64,000 nt of DNA, from assembly GCA_041661765.1 (NCBI GenBank), contig JBAZTV010000001.1, positions 7,755 to 71,754 of the forward strand, given 5' to 3'. The notes under the pieces were generated by a model, which saw only the letters and a program-made list of their open reading frames with translations, made no database searches and was not told the origin of the DNA. This document shows, one piece after another, positions 1 to 38,389 of the stretch. How positions within the stretch are numbered: the first letter of the stretch is position 1; the number at the start of each line of letters is the position of its first letter. The stretch is from Candidatus Shapirobacteria bacterium. GTDB lineage: Bacteria; Patescibacteriota; Microgenomatia; UBA12405. Made by a program: the position numbers and the translations under genes.

Positions 1-5
1 TCTAT

Positions 6-3000
6 TTGAATACCACCGGTAATTATAATACTGCCAGTGGTTATTGGTCTCTCTACGCAAATAGAACTGGTTCTTACAACACCGCCCTTGGTTATTATGC
101 CCTTGGTGCTGGCACCACATTAAATGCCAACATTGCCGTTGGTTATCGAGCTGGTTTAAATCTATCCATCGGTTCCAGTAATATTTTCTTAGGTAATGAC
201 AATGGCGCCACTGGTGCTTATGATAATCGTCTTTATATTGGTAATGGTCAAAATCCAATTATTTATGGTAATTTAGCTAATAATAATATTAGTATTGGTA
301 CCACTGCCACAGGTGCCCGTCTCACTGTCCTTGGTAATAGCAATTCTGTTACTTCCGATTTCACTTTATTAAATGGCGATGGCACCGCCAATCTTGAAAT
401 CCGCACTGGATTAACTGATTTAAATAATATTTTTATTGGAACTGGAGTTGGTCAAACCAATACTACTGGTAGCGCAAATACCGCTAATGGTTCTGAATCA
501 CTTCGCAATAACACTACCGGCTCATATAACACTGCCAATGGTTATTATTCACTCAATCAAAACATATCTGGTAGTTTTAATACCTCTTTTGGTATGTATT
601 CTTTAGAAGATAACACCACTGGCTCATATAACACTGCTTTGGGTAATCAATCAATTTATAACAATAAAACCGGTAACTATAATACTGCTGTTGGTATTAA
701 CTCCCTCGGATTAGGAACCACTTTAAATTCCAATATTGGTCTTGGTATGATGGCTGGCTACAACCTTTCCATCGGTTCCAGTAACATTTTCCTAGGCAAC
801 AATAATGGTGCTACTGGTGCTTATGATAATCGTCTTTACATTGGTAATGGTCAAAACCCTGTTATTTATGGTGATTTAGCTTTAGGTAATATTGGTATCG
901 GCACCACCAACCCTCGTTTCAAAGCCGAAATCAATAATGCTCTTTATGTCAGTGCTTTAAATGTTGGCATTACTGTTGCTTCTGAAAGTTTTTCTGGAAC
1001 ATCATTTGCTCCCACAAATTACACCACTGGCGTGGGCGATAGTGCTTTTGTTCGAGACGTCGCTAATTATCAAGACACTGCCGGCTCAGCCACAAATGGT
1101 GCCGTTCCAGCGTGGGGTTTCGCTTGGATCGAGACCACTGTTAATATGCCATCCTATGGTTATGTTAATTATTGGTGGAAAGTAAGTTCAGAGGCTAGCT
1201 ACGATTTCTTAGTCGTTTGTGTTGATCGAAGCACTTGTAATCTTACAAATTACGATAGACGTATTTCTGGTACCGTAGATTGGACTCAAGTTAATATTGC
1301 ACTTGCCGCTGGCAGTCACACCATTCGATGGGGTTACGCTAAAGATGGCTATACTGTTGGTGGCACCGATCAAGGTTGGATTGATAATATTACATTTGGA
1401 CTTTCTAGTGGCAATATCTATACCGATGGTAATATTAGTATTGGTACTACTACTGCTAATGCTCGCCTCACTATACTCGGAGACAGTAATCCTCATACTT
1501 CCGACCTTACCTTATTAAATGCCGACGGTACCCCTGGTATTGAAATTCGCACCGATTTAACATGGAACTTGCGAAACACTTTTATTGGATATAATGTTGG
1601 TGCTTCCAATACTAGTGGTGATAATAATACTGCTCTAGGTGCTTATTCTTTTATAAATAACACTAGTGGTTTCGCTAATACTTCTGTTGGCCGTTTTTCT
1701 CTCTATGCTAATATCTCTGGTTTTGGCAATAATGCTTTTGGTAGTGCCGCCCTGTCCAACAACACCACTGGCTACGATAATATTGCTTTTGGGAACAATA
1801 CCCTTTCAGATAATTTATCAGGTCATGATAATATCGCTATTGGTAGTGTTTCTATGTGGAACAATATAACAGGTAATAAAAACGTCGCTTTAGGTAGTGA
1901 GTCACTCTATTACAACAATAGTGATGAAAATGTTGCTATTGGTTATTATTCTCTTAACGAAAACATTGGTGGAACTGGTAATTCTGCCTTAGGCAGTCAG
2001 TCTCTCAAAAACAACACTTCTGGTAATTACAATACCGCCAGTGGATATAAATCACTCTATTTTAGTAATAATGGTTCAAATAATACCGCTTTAGGTAGTT
2101 TTGCGGGTTACAATATTGGTAATGGTAGTAGTAATGTTTTCTTAGGTTACGAAGCTGGTTACAACGAAACTGGTTCCAATAAACTTTATATTGCAAATTC
2201 TCAAAACAATACTCTTATCTACGGTAGCTTTTCTACTGGCAATGTCAGTATTGGCACTACTGTCAACACTGCTCGTCTAACAATAAAAGGAGACAGTGAT
2301 GTTAATAACCCCGATTTTATTCTCCTAAATGCTGATAATAGTACCAATCTTCAAATCAGGACTGGATTAACAGATTTAAATAATATTTATATTGGAAAAG
2401 GATCTGGATGGACTAATACCACTGGTAGTTATAACACCTCTAATGGTTCATTTGCTTTAAGTGGTAATACTACTGGTTCTAACAATACTGCTAATGGTTC
2501 ATTTGCTTTAGCTAGTAATACAACCGGTTATCAAAACACCGCCAATGGTTCATCAGCTTTAGTCAATAACATTTCTGGTAACATTAATGTCGCAATGGGA
2601 TACCAATCCCTCTATACCAATACCATTGGAGGCGGAAATGTCGCCATTGGAAGTAACTCACTCACTCAGAATATTAATGGAAACTGGAACACTGCTGTCG
2701 GTGAAGCAGCCCTAACCAGCAACACTTCTGGTGTCTATAACACCGCTTATGGACAAGGCTCTCTCGGACAAAATAGTACTGGGTCCTACAACACCGTCAT
2801 CGGTTCTTTGGCTGGTTATAGTGTTGGTATTGGTAGTAGTAATGTTTTTCTAGGTTACCAAGCTGGTTACAATGAAACTGGTTCCAACAAACTTTATATT
2901 GCAAATTCTCAAAACAATGCTCTTGTCTATGGTGATTTTTCCTCTGGCAACATCAGTATCGGCACTACTATCAACACTGCCCGACTCACAATAAAAGGAG

Positions 3001-5345
3001 ACAGTGATTCCGCCACTTCCGATTTCACTTTATTAAATGGCGATGGCACTACTAGTCTTGAAATCAGAACTGGTATTGGTGATTCGGCAAATACATTTAT
3101 TGGAATCAATGTTGGTTCTTCTAATACCACCGGATATCGTAATACTGGCCTTGGTTACGGTTCCCTAAGATTAAATACCACCGGATATCGTAACACCGCC
3201 ATTGGTTATGGTTCTCTAAGATCCAATACAGAAGGTTTTGATAACCTTGCTTTTGGTAATAATTCACTTTTTTACAACACCACTGGTAGTTCCAATGCTG
3301 CTTTCGGTGGCGTTTCCCTATTTAATAACACCACCGGTAACTATAATTCTGCTGTTGGTGGTGGTTCACTTTCCTCCAACACCGAAGGTTTTAATAACTC
3401 TGCTTTTGGTTATAATTCACTTTTTTGGAACACCACCGGATACCGTAACTCTACTTTTGGTAGTAATTCACTTTCCTCCAACACAACTGGCAACAATAAT
3501 ACTTCTCTTGGTTATTTTGCCCTCGGTTTCGGTACCACTTTAAATTCCAACATTGCTATTGGCTACGAGGCTGGTATGAACCTTTCTGTTGGTTCCAGTA
3601 ATATCTTCTTAGGCAACAGCAACGGTGCTGGTGGTGCTTACAGTAATCGTCTCTACATTGGTAATGGTCAAAGTCCAATTATTTATGGCGATTTAAGCAC
3701 TGGCTACGTCGGCATCGGCACCACCGCCCCAGGCACTCCATTTGCCGTCGCTGGTCTTACTGGTACTACCAGTGGAAATTATCTTCGCTACTACAATAAT
3801 AATTTTTATTACTATTCCTCCTCTGCTCGTTATAAAGATAATATTGAAGTTTTTGATGATGATTTCTCTAAAATTCTCAATATTGAACCAAAAATATTTA
3901 CCGATAAAACCAGCGGTGAAAGAAATATTGGTTTTATTGCCGAAGAAATGGATGCTGCTGGTCTTAATCATCTAGTCACCTACAAAAATGGATTACCAGA
4001 TACTGTTGAATATCAATTAGTTTCTGCATACCTTCTTCAGCTGGCTAAACAACAAAAAATTAAAATTGACAACATTAATAATGATCTATCCCTCACTCAA
4101 ACTGGTCAAATTTCCGTCAACACCAATGTTTCCGATGAAGTCCTCTCTTCTCTTGGCTACGACGGTGCCAAAAATGAAATTGAAGCTGCCACTTATTCTC
4201 TAACCGACACTCTCGGCAACACCGTCTCTCGTATTTCTCAATTCAGTGAAATCGCTTCCGCCAAAATCAAAACCGGTCTCCTTTCCGCCACCAACATCAT
4301 TACCAAAAATATGGTCGCTGAAAAAATCGTTTCACCTTCGGCCGACATAGGTTCACTGAAGGCGGCCACTGCCACTGTTTCTGGCACTCTTTCCGCTAAT
4401 AAAATCGAAACCAACGATCTAGCCGCTAATACCGCTACAGTCTCCACTCTTTATGCCGACAACATTATTTCCAAAGAAGGTTCAATTGGTGAATTAATGA
4501 CCGCCAAAGTCAGTGCCCTCCGCGATGAACTTAAAAATTTAGTTGCCCTAAATACTCAGTCTTCCGGAGCTTCAGCGGAGGAGACCACCCTCACTGGCAC
4601 TTCCCTTCAATCTCAATCATCCACCTGGTCAATGAATATTGCCAGTGATTCGGCCAAAATAACCGGTGATCTCGAACTCGGCAACAACCTCATTGTTGGT
4701 GCTAAACTTACCGTCAATGGCGACACTCAACTCGGCAATGCCTTCATCACCGGCACTTTCACTGCCGGCGAAATCGCCATTAAAGATAATTTTATCGAAA
4801 CCACCAACACCGCTCTCTATATCCAGCCATCACAAACCGGTTCAGTCCACATCATGGGCGACACTTTAGTCATCGCCGAAAACGGCAATATTCAAATCAA
4901 CGGCAATTTAACTGTTTCCGGTTCCCTCATGGCCAACCTCATCGTCGCCGACGAAATCCAAGCCAATAAATTAACCGCCGCCCAAATAAATTCCAATGAA
5001 ATTAAAATTGCTACCGATTCTGCCCAAACCATCGTTGCCGAATCTGGTTTCGGACAAATCGCCACCTCCTCTGCCAAACTAACCTCCAATGCCACCGCCG
5101 GCACCGCCACCCTCCCATCCGGCAAAACTGAAATTGTTATTACCAACGACAAAATCACCGCCAACTCCATGGTCTACCTCACCCCAGTCGGTTCCACCAA
5201 CAACCAAGTCCCCTACATCAAAACCAAAATGGTTTATTCCGAAGCTGAATTACTCGCCGACCCCACCTTACAAAATTACTTCACCATCTCTCTTGATAAT
5301 TATTTAGATAAAGATATCCAAATCAATTGGTGGATTATTAATTAA
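6..5345 (+). CDS. Giant repeat-rich surface/fibre-like protein (more than 1779 aa; 5' end truncated by the window edge, first codon TTG is not a real start). It has an internal intramolecular-chaperone (peptidase S74-like) domain and a C-terminal WWIIN domain.
   Basis: One uninterrupted 5.3 kb ORF. There are hundreds of short NTxGxxN(T/S)A-type repeats and about 5 super-repeats of roughly 250 aa (LYIGNGQNP.IYG...ISIGTT...ARLT..GDS...DF.LLN.DGT..LEIRTGLTDLNN). The segment SSSARYKDNIEVF...ILNIEPKIFTDK...ERNIGFIAEEMD...LV.Y.NG.PDTVEYQLVSAYLLQLAKQQ matches the autoproteolytic chaperone domain of phage tail spikes/endosialidases. The protein ends in ...DKDIQINWWIIN. Confidence 0.7.
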   Translation: MNTTGNYNTASGYWSLYANRTGSYNTALGYYALGAGTTLNANIAVGYRAGLNLSIGSSNIFLGNDNGATGAYDNRLYIGNGQNPIIYGNLANNNISIGTTATGARLTVLGNSNSVTSDFTLLNGDGTANLEIRTGLTDLNNIFIGTGVGQTNTTGSANTANGSESLRNNTTGSYNTANGYYSLNQNISGSFNTSFGMYSLEDNTTGSYNTALGNQSIYNNKTGNYNTAVGINSLGLGTTLNSNIGLGMMAGYNLSIGSSNIFLGNNNGATGAYDNRLYIGNGQNPVIYGDLALGNIGIGTTNPRFKAEINNALYVSALNVGITVASESFSGTSFAPTNYTTGVGDSAFVRDVANYQDTAGSATNGAVPAWGFAWIETTVNMPSYGYVNYWWKVSSEASYDFLVVCVDRSTCNLTNYDRRISGTVDWTQVNIALAAGSHTIRWGYAKDGYTVGGTDQGWIDNITFGLSSGNIYTDGNISIGTTTANARLTILGDSNPHTSDLTLLNADGTPGIEIRTDLTWNLRNTFIGYNVGASNTSGDNNTALGAYSFINNTSGFANTSVGRFSLYANISGFGNNAFGSAALSNNTTGYDNIAFGNNTLSDNLSGHDNIAIGSVSMWNNITGNKNVALGSESLYYNNSDENVAIGYYSLNENIGGTGNSALGSQSLKNNTSGNYNTASGYKSLYFSNNGSNNTALGSFAGYNIGNGSSNVFLGYEAGYNETGSNKLYIANSQNNTLIYGSFSTGNVSIGTTVNTARLTIKGDSDVNNPDFILLNADNSTNLQIRTGLTDLNNIYIGKGSGWTNTTGSYNTSNGSFALSGNTTGSNNTANGSFALASNTTGYQNTANGSSALVNNISGNINVAMGYQSLYTNTIGGGNVAIGSNSLTQNINGNWNTAVGEAALTSNTSGVYNTAYGQGSLGQNSTGSYNTVIGSLAGYSVGIGSSNVFLGYQAGYNETGSNKLYIANSQNNALVYGDFSSGNISIGTTINTARLTIKGDSDSATSDFTLLNGDGTTSLEIRTGIGDSANTFIGINVGSSNTTGYRNTGLGYGSLRLNTTGYRNTAIGYGSLRSNTEGFDNLAFGNNSLFYNTTGSSNAAFGGVSLFNNTTGNYNSAVGGGSLSSNTEGFNNSAFGYNSLFWNTTGYRNSTFGSNSLSSNTTGNNNTSLGYFALGFGTTLNSNIAIGYEAGMNLSVGSSNIFLGNSNGAGGAYSNRLYIGNGQSPIIYGDLSTGYVGIGTTAPGTPFAVAGLTGTTSGNYLRYYNNNFYYYSSSARYKDNIEVFDDDFSKILNIEPKIFTDKTSGERNIGFIAEEMDAAGLNHLVTYKNGLPDTVEYQLVSAYLLQLAKQQKIKIDNINNDLSLTQTGQISVNTNVSDEVLSSLGYDGAKNEIEAATYSLTDTLGNTVSRISQFSEIASAKIKTGLLSATNIITKNMVAEKIVSPSADIGSLKAATATVSGTLSANKIETNDLAANTATVSTLYADNIISKEGSIGELMTAKVSALRDELKNLVALNTQSSGASAEETTLTGTSLQSQSSTWSMNIASDSAKITGDLELGNNLIVGAKLTVNGDTQLGNAFITGTFTAGEIAIKDNFIETTNTALYIQPSQTGSVHIMGDTLVIAENGNIQINGNLTVSGSLMANLIVADEIQANKLTAAQINSNEIKIATDSAQTIVAESGFGQIATSSAKLTSNATAGTATLPSGKTEIVITNDKITANSMVYLTPVGSTNNQVPYIKTKMVYSEAELLADPTLQNYFTISLDNYLDKDIQINWWIIN

Positions 5346-5493: not shown

Positions 5494-6807
5494 ATGCCTC
5501 AACAATTTACCCAAGAACAAATTGAAAAACTTAAAAATCTCGGAATCGAAGTTAATCCCAAAGACACTATTACCAACGAAAATCAACTCGCCGACTTATC
5601 CACTCCCCAACCAACCGAAACACCAAATTTACCTCCACTACCTCAACCAACCGAAACAGAAAATAATAATTTCTCCCCTTCCTCAAGGGGAGATGCGGCA
5701 AATGCCGAGAGGGGTTTAGACAAAAAAAAGACCCCTCCAGTTTTCCCTCTCCTGTCCATTTCCGGTCTCACCCTTCTCTCTTTCGGCGGTCTCGTTTTTT
5801 TAAAAGGCAATGGTTCCCAATCCAACAATCCATCTAAAATCACTCCTTCACCCGTCCGTAGTCAACAAGACGTAGGAGGGCCCACACAAGTACCTAAGTC
5901 TATCCAACATTATCTTTTAACATCACAACAATATTTTTCCCAAGCCGTTTCTAAACAATCCACTGATAATTCATCCTCTGTCGAACTACTTAATAATTCA
6001 ATTATAGCCGCAACTCAGGCAATAAAAGAATTCCCAGACGACTATCGTGGCTACCAACAACGAGGTAATATTTACCAGGCTCTTACTAGTTCAAAACCCG
6101 ATCTTTTAGATCAATCTATATCTGATTTTGCCTCTGCTTTCAAATTAAATTCCAACTCTGCTGAAATCACCCGTTCCCTCGCTTCACTTTATGCCAAAAA
6201 AGGTGATGCCAATAAAACTATTCTCTATTTAAACCAAACCGTTGCTCTCGAACCAACCAAAGCCCAAAATTTTTATGACCTTGCCAAAATCCAGCAACAA
6301 GTCGGTCTTCTTTCTCAAGCCCTCGACACTTACAGTAAACTAACCACTCTAATCACCGATCCAACCCAAAAAATCCAAGTCGAATCCGAAAAAGCTGCCC
6401 TCGAAAAACTAGTTGCTCAAAATCCACGCTCTTCCGAAGCTTCAGCGCAGGAGAGCCAAATTTTACCACCCATCGCCGCTCCATCTTCTCTCGACTCTCC
6501 AACTATTCAAGCCATGGGCGAAGGAGGTCTCATTATTGCTGCTCCCGAAGAAGACAAATCAATTACTGTCACCAACCAAACTGAATCAAATTCTCTTTCC
6601 GGAACCTCAATTATTTCCTCTGGCCAAAAAGAAATTACTATTCCCAACAACAATATTTCTTCTACTTCCCAAGTATATGTCACTGTTACAAAAGGTGGCA
6701 AAAATCAAAATCTCCAAGTCATTTCAAAATCAGAAAAATCTTTCATTGTCGGTCTCGATTCCCCAATTTCCGAAGACATCGAATTCAAATGGTGGATCAT
6801 TAATTAA
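5494..6807 (+). CDS. Membrane-anchored protein with a TPR-like helical region and a C-terminal roughly 60 aa domain homologous to the C-terminus of the upstream giant protein (ends EDIEFKWWIIN)
   Basis: ORF of 437 aa with one predicted TM helix (VFPLLSISGLTLLSFGGLVFL). Its C-terminal SQVYVTVTKGGKNQNLQVI...FIVGLDSPISEDIEFKWWIIN aligns to SMVYLTPVGSTNNQVPYI...FTISLDNYLDKDIQINWWIIN of the 6..5345 protein. An in-frame repeat insert gives SPSSRGDAANAERG near the N-terminus. Confidence 0.55.
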   Translation: MPQQFTQEQIEKLKNLGIEVNPKDTITNENQLADLSTPQPTETPNLPPLPQPTETENNNFSPSSRGDAANAERGLDKKKTPPVFPLLSISGLTLLSFGGLVFLKGNGSQSNNPSKITPSPVRSQQDVGGPTQVPKSIQHYLLTSQQYFSQAVSKQSTDNSSSVELLNNSIIAATQAIKEFPDDYRGYQQRGNIYQALTSSKPDLLDQSISDFASAFKLNSNSAEITRSLASLYAKKGDANKTILYLNQTVALEPTKAQNFYDLAKIQQQVGLLSQALDTYSKLTTLITDPTQKIQVESEKAALEKLVAQNPRSSEASAQESQILPPIAAPSSLDSPTIQAMGEGGLIIAAPEEDKSITVTNQTESNSLSGTSIISSGQKEITIPNNNISSTSQVYVTVTKGGKNQNLQVISKSEKSFIVGLDSPISEDIEFKWWIIN

Positions 6808-17574: not shown

Positions 17575-17698
17575 TGAATTCTGGCCACGACCTATCTTCA
17601 AGATCCCTTGCGGGAAGACTATTGTCAGCGCTAAAGCGTTTCACTTCTCTGTTCGAAATGGGAAGAGGTGGTTCCACCTCGCTCCAATGACCAGAGTT
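17575..17698 (-). rRNA. rrf: 5S ribosomal RNA
   Basis: The reverse complement reads ...CCACCTCTTCCCATTTCGAACAGAGAAGTGAAACGCTTTAGCGCTGACAATAGT..., which matches the conserved 5S loop B/C region (CCCACCTGACCCCATGCCGAACTCAGAAGTGAAACGCCGTAGCGCCGATGGTAGT). The ends are approximate. Confidence 0.7.
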
Positions 17699-17799
17699 CA
17701 AAAACTAAACTAATCGAAATGTATTGTAATTTAATTAAAATTCTTTTTTCTTGGCCTCTAAATTGAGTTGCCCTATTCAGCTTCCAAACCCAAATTTTG

Positions 17800-20795
<2,996 letters not shown>

Positions 20796-20946
20796 CAATA
20801 TTTGGCAACTCAATTTAGTTGCCAAGAATAAACGAAATTGAAATTAAATTACTTTCGATTCAATAAATTGTTAATGTACAAATACTTAGTTAAAGGAGAT
20901 AAATTTCTTTGTCTCCTTATTTCTAACCATTTATTTAGTGGATTTA

Positions 20947-20972
20947 TCCACCGTAGCTTTAGCGTAGGTGGA
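20947..20972. repeat. Family-2 hairpin (TCCACC-GTAGCTTTAGCGTAG-GTGGA) abutting or overlapping the 3' end of tRNA-Ala
   Basis: Shares the CGTAGCTTTAGCG(A/T)AGG core with copies at 13258, 17385, 17449, 49065 and 49655, and with in-CDS copies at 4560 and 6427. Confidence 0.6.
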
Positions 20973-21042
20973 CCTGGGGAGAGTCGAACTCCCGACCTCC
21001 TCATTGCAAATGAGGCGCTATAACCAACTAAGCCACAGGCCC
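20969..21042 (-). tRNA. tRNA-Ala (anticodon TGC); CC of the CCA end is encoded
   Basis: Cloverleaf: acceptor GGGCCTG/CAGGTCC with the Ala-identity G3:U70 pair, D-arm GCTTAGTTGGTTATAGC, anticodon loop CATTTGCAATG, T-arm GGGAGTTCGACTCTCCC. Confidence 0.85.
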
Positions 21043-21080
21043 AAGTGCTTTCTTCTTTAAAGTACTGCTTTCAAGCATTA

Positions 21081-21108
21081 AAAAACCGAAAGCTAAATGC
21101 TTTCGGTC
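21081..21108 (-). terminator. Intrinsic terminator downstream of the DedA gene (minus strand: ACCGAAAGCATTTAGCTTTCGGTTTTTT)
   Basis: An 8-bp stem with a T6 run when read on the minus strand, 160 nt 3' of the CDS stop. Confidence 0.55.
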
Positions 21109-21267
21109 AATCTCCTATTTTACAATTTACTTTTCTAAGCGGGCAATCCCCCTTTATTAAAGTTTTTATTATTTTTTAGGTTGACTTTTAGCATCTCGAT
21201 AAGTGGAAGTATTCTACCTAATTTAAATATTCCCGTCAACACGCAAATCTATTTTCAATAGAACCAA

Positions 21268-21903
21268 TTATTTCTTCATTTTTACTTTAATTATTTCCAC
21301 TCCAATCGGTATCACTGAGACAAATATTATCGCCAATACCACATATTCAAAATTTGCTTTCATTACCGGAATATTTCCCAAAAAATACCCTCCAAAAATA
21401 AACAAAGTATTCCACAATAAAGATCCGATCACACTAAAAGTTAAAAATTTTAAATAAGGCATCTTCCCAATTCCTGCCACAAACGGAGCAAAAGTTCTCA
21501 CTATTGGTACAAACCTTGCCAAAATCACTGCCTTTGTCCCATATTTAGCATAAAAATCCTGTGTCTTCTCTAAATGTTTTCTTTTAAGAAATTTATTATT
21601 TGATTCAAATAGTTTTTGACCAACCAATCGTCCCACCCAATAGTTAACATTATCTCCAAGAAAAACTGCTGTTATTAACAATAAATAAAGTCCCACCACA
21701 TTAAACATTCCTTGTGCCGCCAAAGCTCCAGCTGCAAATAAAAGTGAATCACCTGGCAAAAACGGAGTGAACACCAATCCTGTCTCCATAAAAAGTATTC
21801 CCGCCAAAATTCCATAACTCAAAGTACCGTATGTTTGGGTAATAATTAAAAGATGTTCATCAATATGTAAAACAAAATCAATTATATTCATTAAAAATTC
21901 CAT
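21268..21903 (-). CDS. DedA/VTT-family membrane protein
   Basis: 211 aa with 4-5 TM helices. The motif FTPFLPGDSLLFAAGALAAQG is typical of the DedA/SNARE-associated (VTT) family. Confidence 0.7.
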   Translation of the reverse strand: MEFLMNIIDFVLHIDEHLLIITQTYGTLSYGILAGILFMETGLVFTPFLPGDSLLFAAGALAAQGMFNVVGLYLLLITAVFLGDNVNYWVGRLVGQKLFESNNKFLKRKHLEKTQDFYAKYGTKAVILARFVPIVRTFAPFVAGIGKMPYLKFLTFSVIGSLLWNTLFIFGGYFLGNIPVMKANFEYVVLAIIFVSVIPIGVEIIKVKMKK

Positions 21904-21906
21904 GTC

Positions 21907-23040
21907 CTAATTATACATTACCAACTCCCAAATACCCTTATCTTCTCCCTCATATCCCAACGCCCAAAATCCTACTCCTCCCAACTGATTTTGTTTCACC
22001 AAGTCAAGCTTTGCTTTCAAACTTCTCTCATTTTCAAAATATATCTGATGTATTTCCCCATCTTCTTCAAATACCACCCACGGCGTCATCGATAGTTCAT
22101 CAAAATTTGATGTAAGGGCAGACCCTTGTGTCTGCCCATCAAAAAACTCTTTCATCCGTTTCCAACTAGCCATTTGATACCAACCTCTAATCACTGGTGC
22201 TTCAAAATCTTTTGTATAAGTTTTCCATTCATATCCATAAAGCGGATAAGCCATCACTATTTTTTCTTTATTTATATTCAAAGCTAAAATTTTTTCCACC
22301 ACTTCCATAATATTTCTATCTCCTGGTTTCGATTCAATTGGTGCCACCGCTCCAGCATAATTCACCCCTGGTCGATGAAAATCATAAGCCATAATAATTA
22401 AATTATCGACTGAATTAATCAGACCATTAATTTGTTCCGCTGATCCCTTATTAATAGTGTTCACAAAAATATCTAAACTAATTTCTCCCAAATCACTTTC
22501 TTTTAACTTAGCCATAAAACCGACCATTTCTTCCGATAAAACTGCTGTCGGATTTCCTTGATATTCAAAATCCACATTAATCCCATCAAACTTTTCTGTT
22601 TGCCGAAGAGTTTTTAATTGATTAATCAAATTATTTTGGGCTTCAGTCGAAGCCATTAATCTATCAATTTTCTCATCAATAAACAGTTTAATCCCCAAAA
22701 TATTTTTGCCACCATTTTCCCAAATCAAGTCTTTTTGTTTTAAATAATTTTCATTATTTATTTTTTTCGATTGACCATCCCAAATCAAATTCCCTTTTTC
22801 ATCAACTTCTATTCCCAAAAAAATCAAATAATCAATTTCATCCGTATATTCAATTGTTTTTCCAACCATCCAAGTCGGCAAAAAACCAAATACTTTAATA
22901 GAAGCTCCCTTGTTAAGGGGAGATTTAGAGGGGTTTTGATTCTCAGACAACGGATTTAATATCTCCATTTTTCCATTCCAATAAAAATATCCAGCTAGTA
23001 TTACCAAAAATAATCCCAAACCTAAAAAAACCTTTTTCAT
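21907..23040 (-). CDS. Secreted glycoside-hydrolase family 18-like protein with an in-frame repeat insert
   Basis: N-terminal signal/TM. FDGINVDFEY matches the GH18 DxxDxDxE catalytic motif, and a TIM-barrel-like hydrophobic pattern is present. NPSKSPLNKGAS (repeat at about 22900..22940) and GQTQGSALTSNFD (hairpin at 22110..22136) are repeat-encoded inserts. Confidence 0.55.
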   Translation of the reverse strand: MKKVFLGLGLFLVILAGYFYWNGKMEILNPLSENQNPSKSPLNKGASIKVFGFLPTWMVGKTIEYTDEIDYLIFLGIEVDEKGNLIWDGQSKKINNENYLKQKDLIWENGGKNILGIKLFIDEKIDRLMASTEAQNNLINQLKTLRQTEKFDGINVDFEYQGNPTAVLSEEMVGFMAKLKESDLGEISLDIFVNTINKGSAEQINGLINSVDNLIIMAYDFHRPGVNYAGAVAPIESKPGDRNIMEVVEKILALNINKEKIVMAYPLYGYEWKTYTKDFEAPVIRGWYQMASWKRMKEFFDGQTQGSALTSNFDELSMTPWVVFEEDGEIHQIYFENERSLKAKLDLVKQNQLGGVGFWALGYEGEDKGIWELVMYN

Positions 23041-23309
23041 TTAATGAAAATCAAACCCAAATTCATAAATAATTCTTGCTTAATTGCCAAAACTACATTT
23101 TCATCAGCATTTTTTATTCGAATATTTTTTTCATCAAAAATCAACTCCGAATAACCTCTTTTAATCATTCTATCTACCATAATCTTAATTATTTCCACAT
23201 ATTCTTCATTTTTATTTTTTTCAAAATGTATCTCTACTATTTTATTCTTATCATCAAAAAATAATTCACCTATTTTTTCATCATTATCCCAAATATTTAT
23301 TTTTTTCAT
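23037..23309 (-). CDS. Small hypothetical protein (90 aa)
   Basis: ORF whose stop overlaps the downstream gene start (operon-style 4-nt overlap with the 23306..25012 gene). Confidence 0.35.
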   Translation of the reverse strand: MKKINIWDNDEKIGELFFDDKNKIVEIHFEKNKNEEYVEIIKIMVDRMIKRGYSELIFDEKNIRIKNADENVVLAIKQELFMNLGLIFIK

Positions 23310-25012
23310 AATTTAGATAAATATAAATTTCTAATTTGTTCCCTTGTAAATCCTTTCCTTTCCCAATGCATTTTACTCAACAATAAATTTAAATTTAAGC
23401 TTACTTTAAATTTGGATAAATTTTCTGAATCCATATACGTTTCAAATAATTCCTTCATATACCGAAACCTACTTTCCGACAATATCTGTAGTAAACTTGG
23501 ATCTTTAGTAAACATCATAAAACTCTCACAGAAATCTTCTCTTTTTTTAGTTGATTTCGATTTATTTCCTGCATATCCAACATACCAAGTTATTTCTGTT
23601 TCATCATCTCTCATCACATTTTCCCACTTCTTTAAGTCATCAACTCCTAAATCATTATGTACTCCATGACCAATTTCATGTGTTAAAGTATCCAAAAAAG
23701 CTCCTCTAATAAAAAATTCTTTTTTTTCATTATTATCACCATTATCCATTTCAAATGGTTCATAGATAGTAATATTTCCATAAATTAATTTTCCTTTATC
23801 ATTTAATATTGGTTTAAACTCACCAACTATTACTTTTTTAGTTTTTCCATTTGCATTATCTTCATTGTTTCCAAAATCAATATCATCTTCTGATCGCTCT
23901 CTCGATACCTCTATTTTTCCTATTTTTAAAAAAGCAGTGGGGAGAGTACCTTCCAAAAAGGCTTTCACTATACCCTCGGTAACTACTAATTTTTTACCAT
24001 CACTTGCCTCTAAACCTATTATTTTTATCTTAATTAAAGTTTTTTCCTCTCTTTTAGATTCAATAAAACATTGTTTTTCATCATCATTTTGAGGTAATAA
24101 TCCACTCTCTATTAATTTCTTTTCATCTTCTATAAACCTCTTCTCTATTGCTTTTAAAAATCTTGGATCATAGTGTGAATCATCAACCTCAGAATCAAAA
24201 TAGTAATGATGATCTAATAATTTTAAAAACAACATTGTTGGATTTTTAAAATTATTCGTCAGCCTATAAATCATATGTAAGGTATTAGTTTCAAGTAATT
24301 TTTCATTAACTCTATTCACCTTCTCTAATAAAGATTTTTTACTTATACTTTCACTTTTTTCATTTTTTCCATCAGACAAATTGTTTTTTTCTTGAAAATC
24401 TAAAAATCCATGATTATCACATCTACTTCTTATCTTTTTCAAAGACTCTTCAATTGAATATAGAGAATAAAGATCATTTTGTTCTAATTTCTCATCATCT
24501 CCCGATACTATCACTTCTCTCAATGAGAGAATATCATCAATTGATACAATATGACCAAGGAATTCATCATTTTTATTGTCTAAAAAATAATTCACTACTT
24601 TATTAAAATTAATTTGGCCCGAAAGTTCGTTTGCAAAGATTTTTATGTCCTCAACTACATAAGGTTTACACTCTTCTTTTAAAGAAAAAAACTCATTTTC
24701 TTTTTTATAAATTTCAAAACCTAAATTTACAATTTTAGTTATATTAGATTGATCTTTATATTCTTCTAAAAGTTTCTCTATCATTTCACTTTTTTCAGAT
24801 AAAGACATTTCATTATTATCTATAACAACAAAAAACGAATCATTTATTTGATCCCGATCACTTTCTGAAAGATTATCATAAAGTTCATTTCCTTCATTTC
24901 TCATTACATCTAAATGACTTTCTGTATTTTTAATATCACTTTCAACTACACTTCTAGACCTAGCCATTATCTCAACTTTAGAATAAAGTTCTCCAACACC
25001 AGTTGTTTCCAT
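23306..25012 (-). CDS. Large acidic protein with a C-terminal HExxH zincin-like metallopeptidase motif
   Basis: 568 aa, very E/D/K-rich. TLTHEIGHGVHNDLG and a downstream E (EDFCESFMMFT) are consistent with a zincin fold. No TM or signal peptide. Confidence 0.45.
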   Translation of the reverse strand: METTGVGELYSKVEIMARSRSVVESDIKNTESHLDVMRNEGNELYDNLSESDRDQINDSFFVVIDNNEMSLSEKSEMIEKLLEEYKDQSNITKIVNLGFEIYKKENEFFSLKEECKPYVVEDIKIFANELSGQINFNKVVNYFLDNKNDEFLGHIVSIDDILSLREVIVSGDDEKLEQNDLYSLYSIEESLKKIRSRCDNHGFLDFQEKNNLSDGKNEKSESISKKSLLEKVNRVNEKLLETNTLHMIYRLTNNFKNPTMLFLKLLDHHYYFDSEVDDSHYDPRFLKAIEKRFIEDEKKLIESGLLPQNDDEKQCFIESKREEKTLIKIKIIGLEASDGKKLVVTEGIVKAFLEGTLPTAFLKIGKIEVSRERSEDDIDFGNNEDNANGKTKKVIVGEFKPILNDKGKLIYGNITIYEPFEMDNGDNNEKKEFFIRGAFLDTLTHEIGHGVHNDLGVDDLKKWENVMRDDETEITWYVGYAGNKSKSTKKREDFCESFMMFTKDPSLLQILSESRFRYMKELFETYMDSENLSKFKVSLNLNLLLSKMHWERKGFTREQIRNLYLSKL

Positions 25013-25058
25013 TAAACTAGATTAAAGAAATTCATTTCAATAGTCAAATAAATCCAAT

Positions 25059-25466
25059 TTAATTCCTTATTTTTGTATATCTACTTTTTCCAAAAGCCAA
25101 AATTGGATAAAAAATCATCGGCAAAAATATCAATCCTAAAACAAATCCCATTGATTTTTTAAATGACTTAACCAAATTAAGCAGAACCACCAATCCAATA
25201 ATTATGTTAACTAAGGGAATAAACATTAAAAATATATACCAAATTGGCATCCCCACAATTTCCAATAAAACCACCATGTTATAAACTGGAACCAATGCCG
25301 CCCAGCCAGGTTTCCCGGCTTTCACAAAAATCTTCCAGGCCGATGCCAACATCAATATTAAAAATAAAAAACAAATAAAATTACCAAACATTCCCATTCC
25401 CCCAATTCCTGCCGCATAACCATAACCAGCATGATAACCAGAAGTATTATAAATGTAATTATTCAT
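25059..25466 (-). CDS. Small integral membrane protein (135 aa, 3-4 TM)
   Basis: Gly/Tyr-rich N-terminus followed by hydrophobic helices. Confidence 0.4.
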   Translation of the reverse strand: MNNYIYNTSGYHAGYGYAAGIGGMGMFGNFICFLFLILMLASAWKIFVKAGKPGWAALVPVYNMVVLLEIVGMPIWYIFLMFIPLVNIIIGLVVLLNLVKSFKKSMGFVLGLIFLPMIFYPILAFGKSRYTKIRN

Positions 25467-25545
25467 ACATTAATATTAATACACCATTTCCAAAAGTCAA
25501 ACGCTTTATCTACGATCTATCATCAACAATCCAAGATCTAATTTG

Positions 25546-25619
25546 TGGGTGATGGGGGACTCGAACCTCCGACCCCTGTCTTATCAGGACAGTGCTCTAA
25601 CCAACTGAGCTAATCACCC
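25546..25619 (-). tRNA. tRNA-Ile (anticodon GAT); CCA not encoded
   Basis: Acceptor GGGTGAT/ATCACCC, D-arm GCTCAGTTGGTTAGAGC, anticodon stem-loop CTGTC-CTGATAA-GACAG, T-loop TTCGAGT. One A:C mismatch in the T-stem. Confidence 0.75.
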
Positions 25620-35671: not shown

Positions 35672-38278
35672 TTATTTATTTTTTTCCAAAAAAGTTTTCA
35701 TTAATTTCTTGGCCACTTCAACATTCCTTGAATCAATAGCTCTTTTCAAATCTTGATATATTCTTCCAGAATCTTTATTCTTAATTTCCTTTCTATTGAT
35801 CTTTTTAAATTCACCCAAAATATTTTTTATTTCAGAAGACTTCATATCATAATTAAAACTATCAGCTTGCTTTTTAATAAGAGATTTTGTTTGTGTCTTA
35901 TCACTAACCCACTGTGCTTGATTTCTAATTGTCACAAAAAATGATTGAGGATTTTCTCCTTTTTTCAAATCAAGACCCATATACCTCATTATTTCATTTA
36001 AATCAACATCATTATTACTTAACTTTAAAGTTTTAATTAAAAACTCTGATAGAAATATATTATAAGCCGCTTCCACTGCCTTCCCTTCAGAATTCTTATG
36101 TGGCTGGATTTTAAGACGAATATGTTCATTTGAAAGTCGTGACATGTCTGGCCCAAAAGATCCTAGTAAAATACTAGCCCACATAGCAGGATTTGATGTA
36201 TAAGTAAAAGTCCTCTCATTATTTATATTAATAAGATCAACCATACCAAAAGCCGATCTTACTTTATTTACAAACTTATCAACATCTCTCACATCTTCTT
36301 TACCTGTAACACAATTAAAAACCAAAGCTGCAGCCTCTTGTTGATCTCTAAAAAAATTTAAAGAATCAGATTGACCTTTTGCAAAACTGAAATCAACCTT
36401 CTTCTCTTGACCTACTAATTTTCCATTATCAAAATCAGCATACTTCCACAATAATGTTGATAAAGTCTCCCCGTCTTCTTTTTCAAAATTTTTACCATCC
36501 GGTTTACATAAATCTCTAGTTCCGCAAACAAAATCAAAAAATCCATAACAAGTTTTATTTGCAAATATTGGCAAAGTCCCATCTAGAATATTTTCTCTTA
36601 ATGTTTGTTTTCCAGTTATAGGTCTCTTTAAATCTTCTTCTAATTTCATTACAGTTTGAACATAATTTCCCAACGACCCACCAAACCACTCCGCTCCAAA
36701 TATACTTTCAAAAGGAACTTCGTTTCTGGATATTTTCAATTTCCCCAATGCTTTATATTCCATATTTAAAGTTCTTACTCCATCACTAACAATTCCCGTA
36801 AACGTTGGCAATAATCTCATTCTGTCGGCTAAACTCGAATCACCAAACATGTAAAATAAATTCCAAGCAGTATAGGCATTCATTTTATCCATATAATTAG
36901 CCTCTTTCCTTCCATTTTGATTGGCTAAAAATAAAGCCATTTCTTCCTTATAATTCCTAATTTCAAGTATTTTACCAAACACATCTTGATCAATATCCAT
37001 TGATCCTTTATCCTTCCCAAAAATACCTTCTATTTTTCTATCATTTTCATCCAAAAAATAATCCCATCTACCTTTATCCTTCCCAAAAATACCTTCTATT
37101 TTTCTATCATTTTCATCCTTAATAAACTTACCATCGTTATCTTGTTTATAAAACAACTTTTTATAAAATTTCTCTTTATATCTCATACAAGTTTTTCCAT
37201 TCTGGTCTGAATATTCCTCACATAAATCATGCAACATTTTACTCATCACCAACTTAAAATCTTCATTAAATAATTTTGTAAATTTTTCATTATCAAAAGC
37301 AGAATACATTTTATTTCCCCGAATTTTATCCAAATCTTTTCCAGCATAAAGTAAACTAGCTGCTCCATTATTAACCATCACCATATATTCAATTCTAGCC
37401 TGAGTTTCTCTACCCTCTTCGGTTTTACCTAGTTTTTTAAACCACTCTGGTGGAGTATATGTCTGCCATCTCATATCATCCATAAACTTCATCGCCATTG
37501 CCGCATTTTCCGGAGATATTTCCCATCTCGCTCCTCCTCTCATCTCTTGAGTATCTGGATCAGTAGTAAATGGTTCTACATCTACATCATCATCTAACTC
37601 CCTTTGATTTTTTCCAACTTCTATATTTTTATTTTCCAAAACCACCGACACTGCCAATTGTCCATATTGCTTTTCCAAAGAATCATCTGGTTTCTCCTTA
37701 GTCTCTTCTATTATTTGTTTTAAAACATTTTTAATAGAAACATTCTCATCGTCAATAATAGACGACACATTACTATTAATATCTAAAATTGACTTTCTTT
37801 CATTTTCACTCAATCGCGAGTCTGCTTCCACTACATACTTTCCTAATCCTTTCATTTCTACTGGTAAAAAATCATCAATTTGTTGCCCTGTTAACGCTGA
37901 AGTAATCAAACCTTCCGGATAATCTCTAAAAGAAAAATTAATTGCCCTAAAAGCCGTATTACCTAAAATATTCAAATTTTCTGTTGCTATAGTTTTTTGA
38001 ATATCAGTAGCAGATGGATTTTTAAGGGTTGATTCAATACCACCCACCACACTACCTTTTTCATCTGGTTGATATTTTGTCCCTAAATTTACAAAAATCT
38101 CTTGACAAACCAATTGCGATCTTTCTTCTTCAATCTGGCCAGCAAAAATTCCACTATTATCAACCAATTTTTTTGTTATATCTTGAGTTTTTTTATTATT
38201 CTCTTTCACTCTACTAACCTCGGCTGTTTTTTTCATAAACTCCATCGGATTTAATACTGGTGCTTCACTTCCACTCAT
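35672..38278 (-). CDS. Large hypothetical soluble protein (868 aa) with an internal 21-aa tandem duplication
   Basis: Long ORF with no TM. DENDRKIEGIFGKDKG occurs twice (DNA 37005..37118). Confidence 0.45.
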   Translation of the reverse strand: MSGSEAPVLNPMEFMKKTAEVSRVKENNKKTQDITKKLVDNSGIFAGQIEEERSQLVCQEIFVNLGTKYQPDEKGSVVGGIESTLKNPSATDIQKTIATENLNILGNTAFRAINFSFRDYPEGLITSALTGQQIDDFLPVEMKGLGKYVVEADSRLSENERKSILDINSNVSSIIDDENVSIKNVLKQIIEETKEKPDDSLEKQYGQLAVSVVLENKNIEVGKNQRELDDDVDVEPFTTDPDTQEMRGGARWEISPENAAMAMKFMDDMRWQTYTPPEWFKKLGKTEEGRETQARIEYMVMVNNGAASLLYAGKDLDKIRGNKMYSAFDNEKFTKLFNEDFKLVMSKMLHDLCEEYSDQNGKTCMRYKEKFYKKLFYKQDNDGKFIKDENDRKIEGIFGKDKGRWDYFLDENDRKIEGIFGKDKGSMDIDQDVFGKILEIRNYKEEMALFLANQNGRKEANYMDKMNAYTAWNLFYMFGDSSLADRMRLLPTFTGIVSDGVRTLNMEYKALGKLKISRNEVPFESIFGAEWFGGSLGNYVQTVMKLEEDLKRPITGKQTLRENILDGTLPIFANKTCYGFFDFVCGTRDLCKPDGKNFEKEDGETLSTLLWKYADFDNGKLVGQEKKVDFSFAKGQSDSLNFFRDQQEAAALVFNCVTGKEDVRDVDKFVNKVRSAFGMVDLININNERTFTYTSNPAMWASILLGSFGPDMSRLSNEHIRLKIQPHKNSEGKAVEAAYNIFLSEFLIKTLKLSNNDVDLNEIMRYMGLDLKKGENPQSFFVTIRNQAQWVSDKTQTKSLIKKQADSFNYDMKSSEIKNILGEFKKINRKEIKNKDSGRIYQDLKRAIDSRNVEVAKKLMKTFLEKNK

Positions 38279-38389
38279 ATGCCCTAATTATACCAAATCT
38301 AAATTCCTTCTTGTTAAATAAAAAGCCTCCATGTCAAGGGAGGTGGTCTGCTTTGCAGACCGGAGGGTTTAATTTGTTAAAATTATTTA

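Follow-up and report, generated by a model that had tools for sequence, protein, structure and literature searches.

CPR bacteria (Patescibacteria) live attached to other cells, and to our knowledge almost nothing is known of how their surface fibres are constructed and deployed. We also know of only one setting, eukaryotic MYRF, in which an internal Peptidase_S74 domain had been characterised before. In phage S74 fibres such as the K1F endosialidase, T5 pb1, the S16 gp37/38-type protein (6f45) and the GA-1 neck appendage, a trimeric-fibre-type body is followed by S74 as the very last domain of the protein, spanning 133 residues in pb1, with a Ser-Lys dyad in S-x4-K spacing. The S1264A substitution in T5 pb1 abolishes cleavage, and the chaperone is released in this system (PMC4690869). 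MYRF is reported to cleave itself so that its N-terminal part comes away from a large C-terminal one (PMC3742443, PMC3742440). Two further phage modules are relevant: the Peptidase_G2 autochaperone of phi29 gp12-type pre-neck appendages, and K1-lyase_C (PF24146), the C-terminal beta-sandwich of the Klebsiella phage NTUH-K2044-K1-1 lyase, also present in the cyanophage Pam1 tailspike and K64-1 S2-4. The best explanation for the region described here is a cell-surface fibre that exceeds 4,500 residues, is composed of phage tail-fibre modules and has its distal end encoded in the window.

The window is the whole stretch of 64,000 nucleotides that was analysed, and the features discussed are collected in Table 1; residues are numbered with the Leu at nucleotide 6 as residue 1. 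The reading frame at the start is a real ORF, open from nucleotide 3 to the stop codon at 5343-5345 (1,780 codons plus stop), and, with no upstream stop inside the window, the gene must extend past the window start. ENA contig L001, identical over 16.8 kb, carries the same gene up to the contig end and puts the complete fibre product at 4,506 aa or more, the length of the called protein. A 4,365-aa protein in another record (P0051) is apparently the same protein, its S74 domain and C-terminal cassette being 100% identical and the whole overlap not identical; it contributes 1,082 aa more and is still incomplete at the N-terminus. Exact 50-mers searched against GTDB genomes yielded no N-terminal extension, the upstream 500 aa used as a homology query did not bring back the parent protein, and a Pfam scan of the upstream 1,533 aa gave no match. 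The first-pass annotation, made from the sequence alone, had taken the gene to be truncated and larger than the window displays; extension through L001 bore this out, although the N-terminus was not reached.

Table 1. Features of the giant fibre gene and of the gene downstream, in window coordinates
Feature	Nucleotides	Strand	Basis or detail
Giant fibre gene, 3' part	3..5345	+	Reading frame and called product of identical contig
Super-repeat 1, cut by window	3..320	+	End of a 17-residue-repeat block with 'LYIGNGQNP...NISIGTT' connector
Super-repeat 2 (about aa 106-315)	321..950	+	'ARLTVLG...LEIRTGL' linker, five 17-aa repeats, connector
Inserted globular domain, ~150 aa (aa 316-465)	951..1400	+	
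Super-repeat 3 (aa 488-757)	1467..2276	+	
Super-repeat 4 (aa 758-993)	2277..2984	+	
Super-repeat 5 (aa 994-1245)	2985..3740	+	Ends in LYIGNGQSPIIYGDLSTGYVGIGTTAPG
Peptidase_S74 chaperone/autoprotease (aa 1272-1357), then long C-terminal helix	3819..4076	+	Pfam and profile
Predicted scissile/nucleophile Ser1272	3819-3821	+	
Predicted general base Lys1277	3834-3836	+	
Conserved Microgenomates C-terminal cassette (aa 1358-1779)	4077..5342	+	Junction at start, LSLTQTGQISVN
Predicted coiled-coil helix of cassette (aa 1494-1518)	4485..4559	+	H137-161, model mac6408705d4d; lambda gpJ central-fibre match
Cassette beta-helical segment (aa about 1547-1650)	4644..4955	+	Sub-threshold Bactofilin matches
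Terminal beta-sandwich, K1-lyase_C type (aa 1685-1779)	5058..5342	+	Ends WWIIN; pLDDT ~95
Candidate partner, 437-aa protein with TM helix and TPR region	5494..6807	+	

The fibre body consists of variable, beta-solenoid-type repeats of 17 aa (51 nt) with the consensus N-T-T-G-x-x-N-T-A-x-G-x-x-S-L-x-x. A regular-expression count gave 31 in-register copies, for a total of 31 or more, arranged in five blocks, the first truncated and four complete, with lengths of 195-270 aa, in agreement with the first reading of at least five super-repeats. Each block closes with a connector of the form '...LYIGN/LYIANSQN...GN(V/I)(S/G)IGTT...'. The tail-fibre-like character proposed for the repeats was also upheld: the body matched PHROG virion/tail-spike families 6002, 23837 and 4636 (E of 5.7e-97, 8.8e-81 and 3.4e-62), and tblastn matched the repeats to tail fibres of 103 phage records at 29-39% identity. 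A PDB sequence search with the repeats gave no usable match. The alternative description as collagen-like proved wrong, because the 17-aa unit lacks any G-X-Y pattern. A YadA-like head, as in trimeric autotransporter adhesins, was likewise rejected, as no YadA_head or Hep_Hag Pfam model matched anywhere in the ORF at E<=1. The domain inserted between super-repeats 2 and 3 follows the pattern 'ESF...WKVSSE..DFL..C.D...ISG..W......G.H...W.Y.KD....G.D.GWID' with two invariant Cys. It is also present in other giant members of the family and had no Pfam or PDB match in sequence and profile searches.

Downstream of the repeats, Pfam Peptidase_S74 (PF13884) matched aa 1272-1318 with E=3.9e-5 (24.3 bits, cut-off 22). 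A profile built from the S74 segment and its relatives matched the solved S74 chaperones 6f45 (3e-14) and 8jov (1e-11), as well as MYRF 7dc3 (8e-6), T5 pb1 8hqz (2.5e-5) and GA-1 3gud. Ser1272 and Lys1277, in the local sequence S1272-S-A-R-Y-K1277, are invariant in 14 aligned sequences, and their S-x4-K spacing equals that of Ser1264/Lys1269 in T5 pb1. The dyad is also retained in 38 of 39 cassette-linked S74 domains that are themselves just 21-36% identical. An AF2 model places strands ahead of a helix at positions 87-111 (pLDDT 76-91); this and the other structure models each show a single chain of what is probably a trimer, and their mean pLDDT is 70-77. The S74 domain called an intramolecular chaperone by the first-pass annotation is genuine as judged from these matches, and it looks catalytically competent, as predicted from the dyad with the spacing that had been proposed for checking. 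Its internal position was confirmed as well. The module ends at about aa 1357-1363 and S74-only relatives terminate 2-31 residues past it, whereas 422 residues ending in WWIIN follow here.

In the models, these 422 residues begin as an extended stalk, continue through a coiled coil and a beta-helix, and end in a beta-sandwich of K1-lyase_C type. About 130 residues ahead of the coiled coil were modelled as extended chain, an arrangement typical of intertwined trimeric fibres. The last ~85 residues scored 28.4 bits against K1-lyase_C (cut-off 27) when the last 100 aa were scanned alone and 24.8 bits with a longer query; Foldseek searches with the model gave probabilities of 0.98-1.0 to 7eea, 7w1c and 9k4a. 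When the terminal 100 aa were used in a word-index search, only 7 fragments matched, and PDB sequence and profile searches with the cassette gave no usable match. Bactofilin (PF04519) was rejected as an assignment for the beta-helical segment: the scores of 15-22.6 bits fall below the cut-off of 27.9 and reflect generic beta-helix similarity, and the segment lies in an exported fibre. The names of relatives in the source records include 'polymer-forming cytoskeletal protein' and CcmA.

At E<1e-30 the cassette has 909 cluster representatives, a number that rises to 3,609 at E<1e-10, and in nearly all of the best 150 it occupies the extreme C-terminus. The S74-cassette junction 'LSLTxTGQ' recurs in 40 proteins from many independent assemblies. 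Searches for a dedicated Pfam or NCBIfam family returned just the partial Bactofilin and K1-lyase_C matches, and literature searches on S74/intramolecular chaperones in CPR found no relevant paper and no description of the cassette. Judged by its distribution among sequences, the cassette is an independent, lineage-wide conserved C-terminal module that was previously undescribed. The extension of about 400 residues noted at the outset is therefore present, with a beta-helix as had been suggested, but it is a lineage-wide element of hundreds of clusters rather than an oddity of this gene, and at its end it is itself phage-spike-like.

The domain directly ahead of the cassette was determined for 93 relatives. 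S74 occupied this position in 40 and a Hint fragment in 1; 43 + 3 carried a Peptidase_G2-like domain, a call based on one above-threshold partial Pfam match (PF11962, profile positions 41-99 of 228, 26.4 bits, cut-off 25) and an HMM that we built; other or unassigned domains accounted for about 10. The D-x-A-E motif is retained in 38 of the 43 G2-like domains. By these assignments, the cassette nearly always follows a chaperone-type domain of predicted self-cleaving activity (S74 or Peptidase_G2-like), and its occurrence behind different self-cleaving domains argues that separation is the selected property. The S74 domain of this protein is 60% identical to that of terminal S74-only proteins versus 21-30% to those of proteins sharing a 50-79% identical cassette. 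In six syntenic genomes (loci L003, L004, L006, L007, L012 and L014), the cassette is 56-85% identical and tracks the neighbouring TPR, M23 and Rho genes, and the repeats and S74 are replaced. The alignments thus place the boundary between conserved and variable parts at the S74-cassette junction and indicate that the cassette is inherited vertically with the locus.

The gene immediately downstream encodes a candidate partner. The last ~80 residues of this TPR protein (nucleotides ~6565-6804, ending in KWWIIN) share homology with the cassette's terminal domain, and a same-strand downstream gene with the same terminal domain was found at 31 of 84 loci, most of the closest included. Of 88 family members of at least 1,500 aa, 58 have an integrase-SAM-like N-terminus, and by a crude filter 29 of these 58 have a TM helix inside the first 260 residues. 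Members of the family are thus probably cell proteins with an N-terminal membrane anchor. For the gene studied here, we predict an N-terminus that combines an integrase-SAM-like domain with a TM helix and carries the motif LSFQGRLTDSSGNP.

We tentatively favour, at a probability of about 0.45, a reading in which S74 folds a trimeric fibre and then cuts off itself together with the cassette, which would serve as a lineage-specific assembly or tethering pro-module. After export, the chain would stay attached to the membrane through an N-terminal anchor of the kind known from relatives. The cassette would align the three C-termini in register, and it may dock to the TPR protein or to the same envelope ligand because the terminal domain is common to both. 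Starting at the C-terminal end, the S74 trimer would nucleate the folding of the trimeric fibre, and it would afterwards cut the chain before Ser1272. A fragment of S74 plus cassette, 508 aa per chain, would thereby be severed, and the cassette would be an extended pro-module and not part of the mature fibre. Several observations run against this reading: 420 residues are large for a pro-domain, about 10 of the 93 relatives have other or unassigned domains ahead of the cassette, and the end of the cassette resembles the part of phage spikes and fibres that lies distally and may bind receptors, which fits a functional tip at least as naturally. As for the function of the fibre, we infer that it may serve in host attachment.

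A more elaborate version, which we hold to be improbable, would give Microgenomates a dedicated two-gene system for fibre deployment. Giant fibres would be anchored by the N-terminal integrase-SAM-like cytoplasmic domain and the TM helix, pairing of the K1-lyase_C/WWIIN domain of the cassette with that of the TPR protein would first tether the far end, and autoproteolysis by S74, G2 or Hint would then release this end as a folding-gated switch. The cytoplasmic SAM-like domain might also couple the state of the fibre to the cell interior, as a prokaryotic mirror image of MYRF.

The main rival to the pro-module reading is that the cassette is retained as a functional distal tip, an adhesin or receptor-binding part. 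S74 or G2 would then act mainly as a trimerisation and folding nucleus, with no cut or with products that stay non-covalently joined. The terminal domain belongs to a family found distally on phage tailspikes, its Foldseek matches are to the receptor-binding regions of the Pam1 tailspike, K1 lyase and K64-1 depolymerase and to many phage fibre tips, and the order of stalk, beta-helix and beta-sandwich is reminiscent of a small spike; since the membrane TPR protein has this domain too, it could be a ligand-binding module common to both. We nevertheless consider a retained tip rather unlikely. The near-universal retention of the dyad and the presence of two or three unrelated self-cleaving domain types ahead of the cassette speak against it, and in characterised S74 systems the products separate, as described for T5 pb1 (PMC4690869) and for MYRF (PMC3742443). 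Moreover, one would expect a receptor-binding part to vary most, whereas the cassette is the most conserved and evolves like its housekeeping neighbours.

Cleavage could alternatively yield the product of interest, with S74 and cassette leaving the fibre as a soluble trimeric mini-spike of about 3 x 508 aa that has a role of its own, for example as lectin, matrix component, decoy or signal, and the fibre body serving as a carrier for folding and export. Such a role would suit a self-contained, strongly conserved, spike-like cassette with predicted cleavage-competent domains always directly ahead of it, and short members exist that consist of a small N-terminal domain, S74 and cassette (P0006, 677 aa; P0022, 597 aa). 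Many short members are fragments of short contigs, however, no enzymatic or toxin-like domain was detectable in the cassette, and fast-varying carriers of 2,000-7,000 residues are hard to explain for a constant product of 420 aa. A shed product is accordingly doubtful.

It is very unlikely that the gene is a phage, prophage or tailocin tail-fibre gene merely sitting in a bacterial contig, even though repeats, S74 and terminal domain are all phage-type modules. The 58 kb downstream in the window carry Rho, RadA, S1, 23S/5S rRNA, FtsH and M23 peptidase genes, and no phage gene was found there. The fibre gene occupies a conserved chromosomal locus among housekeeping neighbours, outside any phage structural module, and prophage origin was rejected on this context together with the synteny in six genomes. 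The cassette was absent from 50,697 phage genomes and IMG/VR, and relatives carry the N-terminal cytoplasmic domain, with a TM helix in about half of those scanned by the crude filter. Informatively named relatives are all Shapiro-, Woese- or Gottesmanbacteria or 'Patescibacteria group', which supports a CPR source organism of the Microgenomates (Shapirobacteria-like). Of the proposal of a domesticated phage tail fibre, the phage-type modules stand, but the gene itself sits in a conserved chromosomal locus and its relatives are membrane-anchored. Least credible of all is an assembly artefact, whether collapsed or chimeric repeats or a false fusion of S74 to a downstream gene: repetitive genes are prone to mis-assembly and L001 may come from the same data, but DNA identity between repeat copies is no more than 60-79% and a collapsed tandem repeat is therefore not the explanation, the junction recurs across independent assemblies, and an orthologue of 85-89% identity is present in another MAG (L004).

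Together, these data show that phage intramolecular chaperones (S74 and G2-like) were recruited into cellular proteins at an internal position, and they define a very common CPR module. The favoured reading yields a directly testable prediction, cleavage at Ser1272, and supplies a candidate partner gene in the membrane TPR protein. The resulting map of hypervariable (fibre and chaperone) and constant (cassette) parts of giant genes should aid annotation and comparison of CPR genomes and the choice of constructs for structural work.

Compared with known systems, the closest S74 relatives are bacterial 'tail fiber domain-containing proteins' (P0035, P0037 and P0038, e.g., from Planctomycetes) at about 60% identity, which end 11-31 residues past S74 without the cassette. 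Phage S74 fibres share the body and the dyad, but here conserved residues follow S74, the gene is chromosomal and exceeds 4,500 aa, and relatives are probably membrane-anchored cell proteins. The phi29 gp12-type autochaperone has its counterpart in the G2-like domain that replaces S74 in about half of the cassette-bearing relatives, whereas the protein of this window has S74. The end of the cassette is like that of the K1 lyase, but no lyase or depolymerase beta-helix was detectable upstream in the fibre protein, and the domain here ends in a lineage-specific NWWIIN and also occurs on the membrane TPR protein. MYRF/MrfA is alike in the internal position of its S74 domain (ICA). Its membrane anchor lies in the C-terminal part and what is set free is a DNA-binding trimer, whereas here no TM-length hydrophobic stretch was found in aa 1358-1779, the anchor of relatives is N-terminal, and the part predicted to be cleaved off would be extracellular and spike-like.

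The candidate fibre protein encoded at the window start carries, as judged by sequence comparison, an intact Peptidase_S74 intramolecular chaperone/autoprotease domain (S74). The Pfam model matched residues 1272 to 1318 (24.3 bits, cut-off 22; residues are counted from nt 6, the first TTG and the start set by the ORF tool), and a 14-sequence S74 profile recovered the solved chaperones 6f45 (3e-14), 8jov (1e-11) and 3gud (GA-1), as well as the MYRF ICA structure 7dc3 (8e-6) and T5 pb1 (8hqz, 2.5e-5). When the S74 segment was aligned with its relatives, Ser1272 and Lys1277 were invariant and homologous to Ser1264 and Lys1269 of T5 pb1, which cleave that protein; S1264A abolishes the cut, which otherwise sets free a 133-residue chaperone (PMC4690869). 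The first-pass annotation had proposed such a domain, with a possible Ser-Lys dyad and an internal position, and these proposals held: S74 ends at about residues 1357 to 1363, and the chain continues behind it to residue 1779. The closest S74 relatives (proteins P0035, P0037 and P0038, about 60% identity) carry the domain terminally, P0035 and P0037 ending 11 to 31 residues past it. At the domain level, we regard the protein as a bona fide S74 family member.

Residues 1358 to 1779, here termed the cassette, recurred at 40 to 85% identity in proteins whose N-terminal parts are unrelated (fibres of kelch-like, FG-GAP, DUF4082 and further types), and the alignments define it as a conserved C-terminal module. 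A cassette profile searched against 1.84 billion cluster representatives gave 909 matches below an E-value of 1e-30, or 3,609 with the limit set at 1e-10; nearly all of the top 150 were matched through to their last residue, and cassette proteins were up to 7,448 aa long. The roughly 400 residues first noticed behind S74 are real, but with 909 such clusters they are not an oddity of this gene. Among GTDB genomes the cassette was encoded at 125 loci, the informatively named ones all being Microgenomates or Patescibacteria (CPR). Many cassette contigs there (L005, L008-L011, L053, L065 and others) are titled "uncultured Gammaproteobacteria/Pseudomonadales", and some are labelled even Thermoplasmatales or Bathyarchaeia; their content is of CPR type, so mislabelled bins, contaminant contigs or placeholder names are the probable explanation. 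No cassette was found among 50,697 phage genomes or in a pattern scan of IMG/VR, no Pfam or NCBIfam model covered the whole of it, and a literature search turned up no publication on intramolecular chaperones or S74 in CPR. The S74-cassette architecture is widespread, not peculiar to the window gene, and appears undescribed.

In AF2 monomer models (mean pLDDT 70 and 77), the cassette runs from the conserved junction (LSLTxTGQ) through an extended chain of about 130 residues, a coiled-coil-like helix of 25 residues, a low-complexity linker and a beta-helical segment, which matched Bactofilin only below threshold, to a beta-sandwich of about 90 residues (pLDDT about 95). This terminal domain matched Pfam K1-lyase_C (28.4 bits, cut-off 27), and its model superposed on the C-terminal domains of the cyanophage Pam1 tailspike, Klebsiella K1 lyase and K64-1 depolymerase S2-4 (Foldseek probability 0.98 to 1.0). 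In BFVD, 24 viral proteins matched the cassette at E<=1e-3, many of them tail proteins that contain K1-lyase_C and align over 150 to 260 columns, and the extended part weakly matched the central fibre of lambda gpJ.

The domains in front of the cassette were surveyed in 93 relatives with enough upstream sequence, using HMMs from our own alignments. S74 ended at the cassette start in 40, while a different, Peptidase_G2-like chaperone domain preceded the cassette in 43 (and in 3 more with inserts), with the signature "D-x-A-E-Y...GD-V...IGVVS..PG...PVALxGRVPvKV...GDpI.sS..PG...KA..GKAlE...WYDPD"; that of relative P0003 matched Pfam Peptidase_G2 ("IMC autoproteolytic cleavage domain") at 26.4 bits (cut-off 25). 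One relative carries half of a Hint/intein domain (the C-terminal half), whose final HNT lies right at the junction, and other types ("TIDPPYTINGxKY", "PDYVFEDNY") were present in about 5. Of 39 S74 domains linked to a cassette, 38 kept the S-x4-K dyad, and D-x-A-E was kept in 38 of 43 G2-like ones. Across this survey the cassette is, by domain assignment, systematically coupled to chaperone-type self-cleaving domains. A "GTIDPPYTINGxKY..." domain or the "PDYVFEDNYxL" type was seen in P0034, P0040, P0123, P0136 (directly before the cassette) and P0021, and in P0031 and P0093 the called ORF begins with the C-terminal half of a Hint/intein domain.

Six further genomes show synteny at this locus, in the order cassette gene, TM-TPR gene (its product has a TPR region and a transmembrane helix), TPR/C39-like (-), LysM-M23 (-) and Rho (-). 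Their cassettes were 85, 77, 71, 70, 56 and 56% identical to that of the window, paralleling the divergence of neighbour genes (M23: 92, 84, 83, 83, 67 and 72%). The repeat body was detectable in one of the six (L004), and S74 was 89% identical there and about 26 to 29% identical or not detected elsewhere; the positional orthologue in L003, P0001, combines a kelch-like body and a 29% identical S74 with a 79% identical cassette. Because S74 and repeats differ while the cassette parallels its neighbours, these comparisons place the conserved/variable boundary at the S74-cassette junction, with S74 moving together with the variable fibre, as it does in phages, and the constant, vertically inherited end formed by the cassette. 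In L002, a 708-kb contig of another CPR genome, the cassette protein P0010 (919 aa) adjoins a second S74-containing gene (4,313 aa); paralogous fibre genes therefore cluster.

Profile comparison assigns the same terminal domain to the co-encoded TM-TPR protein: its last 80 or so residues, ending in KWWIIN, are homologous to the cassette beta-sandwich (65.5 bits, E 3e-20), and it matched Pfam K1-lyase_C below threshold. Of 84 related loci, 31, most of the closest among them, have a downstream gene on the same strand that encodes this domain. The survey of N-termini covered 88 cassette proteins with lengths of 1,500 aa or more. In 58 of them Pfam assigned the opening domain to the phage-integrase SAM-like families (Phage_int_SAM_1/5, with scores reaching 49.6 bits); it lies within the first 150 or so residues in, for example, P0044, P0052, P0058, P0063, P0105 and P0139. 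Where individual proteins were read, this domain was followed by a TM helix and then by the motif "LSFQGRLTDSSGNP"; a crude filter detected a TM helix among residues 1 to 260 in 29 of these 58 proteins. Most of the remainder begin within fibre sequence and look truncated. From these relatives, the window protein is predicted to have an N-terminal membrane anchor and a small cytoplasmic domain. In these relatives a domain of DNA-binding type is joined to giant extracellular fibres.

In the mechanism we propose, an S74 trimer would fold the fibre and would cut the chain before Ser1272, severing a 508-residue fragment of S74 plus cassette. Self-cleaving domains of unrelated types stand before one and the same cassette, and the dyad shows clear conservation; separation of this fragment therefore appears to be the selected feature. 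We tentatively favour, at a probability of roughly 0.45, the cassette as an assembly or tethering pro-module, because it is the slowest-evolving part and a membrane-bound relative is encoded next door. By its K1-lyase_C fold and its matches to BFVD tail proteins and gpJ, the modelled cassette resembles the tip of a small trimeric spike; that it is a retained receptor-binding tip we consider unlikely, and that it is shed as a functional mini-spike, improbable.

A prophage origin is essentially excluded. The repeat body matched PHROG virion and tail-spike families (E 1e-62 to 1e-97) and tail-fibre genes in 103 phage genomes (29 to 39% identity); the window is bacterial chromosome, with genes for Rho, RadA, ribosomal protein S1, FtsH, an M23 peptidase, a VirB4/TraG-like ATPase, 23S and 5S rRNA, tRNA-Ala and tRNA-Ile, and no phage genes were detected in it. 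Relatives with informative taxon names were all Shapiro-, Woese- or Gottesmanbacteria or "Patescibacteria/Microgenomates group". GC skew stays between -0.2 and -0.45 in nearly all 2-kb bins, a strong strand asymmetry throughout the window; such a disparity is reported for a Microgenomates genome (PMC7143001). The layout of the rRNA region is unusual, with 5S, 23S and tRNA-Ala side by side and tRNA-Ile 4.5 kb beyond them, across protein ORFs that include a GH18 hydrolase; no 16S rRNA was detected across the entire window. The TraG-like ATPase, DUF4012 and DUF6909 proteins may be parts of Patescibacteria type IV secretion or envelope machinery.

The repeat body is built from 17-aa (51-nt) units, N-T-T-G-x-x-N-T-A-x-G-x-x-S-L-x-x, of which a regex found 31 in-register copies in the window part of the protein. 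Blocks of 195 to 270 aa open with "ARLTxxG...LEIRTG" and close with "...LYIGNGQNP...GNxxIGTT"; the super-repeats described earlier, at least five, were recovered as four complete blocks and a first one truncated by the window, and their type is tail-fibre-like, not collagen-like. The ORF matched no YadA or Hep_Hag model in Pfam, and a PDB sequence search with the repeats gave no match. Blocks 2 and 3 are separated by an inserted globular domain of 150 aa, which has two invariant Cys and bears the signature "WKVSSE...D.L...C.D...ISG..W...G.H...W.Y.KD...G.D.GWID"; it had no Pfam or PDB sequence match and recurs in other giant relatives (P0054, P0062, P0063 and L077). Repeat copies are 60 to 79% identical in DNA, so the collapsed-repeat assembly raised as a refutation is excluded, and an assembly artefact has next to no probability. 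No upstream stop in the fibre frame was found inside the window, and the gene does extend beyond it, as first suggested: in L001 (ENA ERZ27249449 k141_280414), which shares 16.8 kb identical to the window, the called product of 4,506 aa reaches the contig end, and P0051 (4,365 aa; S74 and cassette 100% identical) contributes 1,082 more fibre residues. As both still lack the N-terminus, the gene must exceed 13.5 kb.

Coordinates of features in the window and, where stated, on contig L002
Feature	Position (nt)	Strand	Remarks
Fibre ORF	open from 3; stop 5343-5345	+	reading-frame check
Inserted globular domain	951-1400	+	aa 316-465
SSARYK	3819-3836	+	Ser1272, Lys1277
TM-TPR protein	5494-6807	+	437 aa; TM helix and TPR region
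rRNA region	17579-25619	-	5S, 23S, tRNA-Ala, tRNA-Ile
DUF6909 protein	38260-40077	+	
DUF4012 protein	42963-45959	-	998 aa
VirB4/TraG-like ATPase	56636-59221	-	P-loop_TraG
P0010 cassette gene	L002 1030-3789		
Neighbouring S74 gene	L002 4564-13789		

In phage S74 proteins a terminal S74 is the architectural hallmark, whereas in the window protein the domain is not terminal. To our knowledge, the only characterised internal S74 is that of eukaryotic MYRF. S74 cleavage is reported to part MYRF into two halves (PMC3742443). The MYRF anchor lies C-terminal to S74, whereas that of the window protein, judged from its relatives, would lie N-terminal to it.
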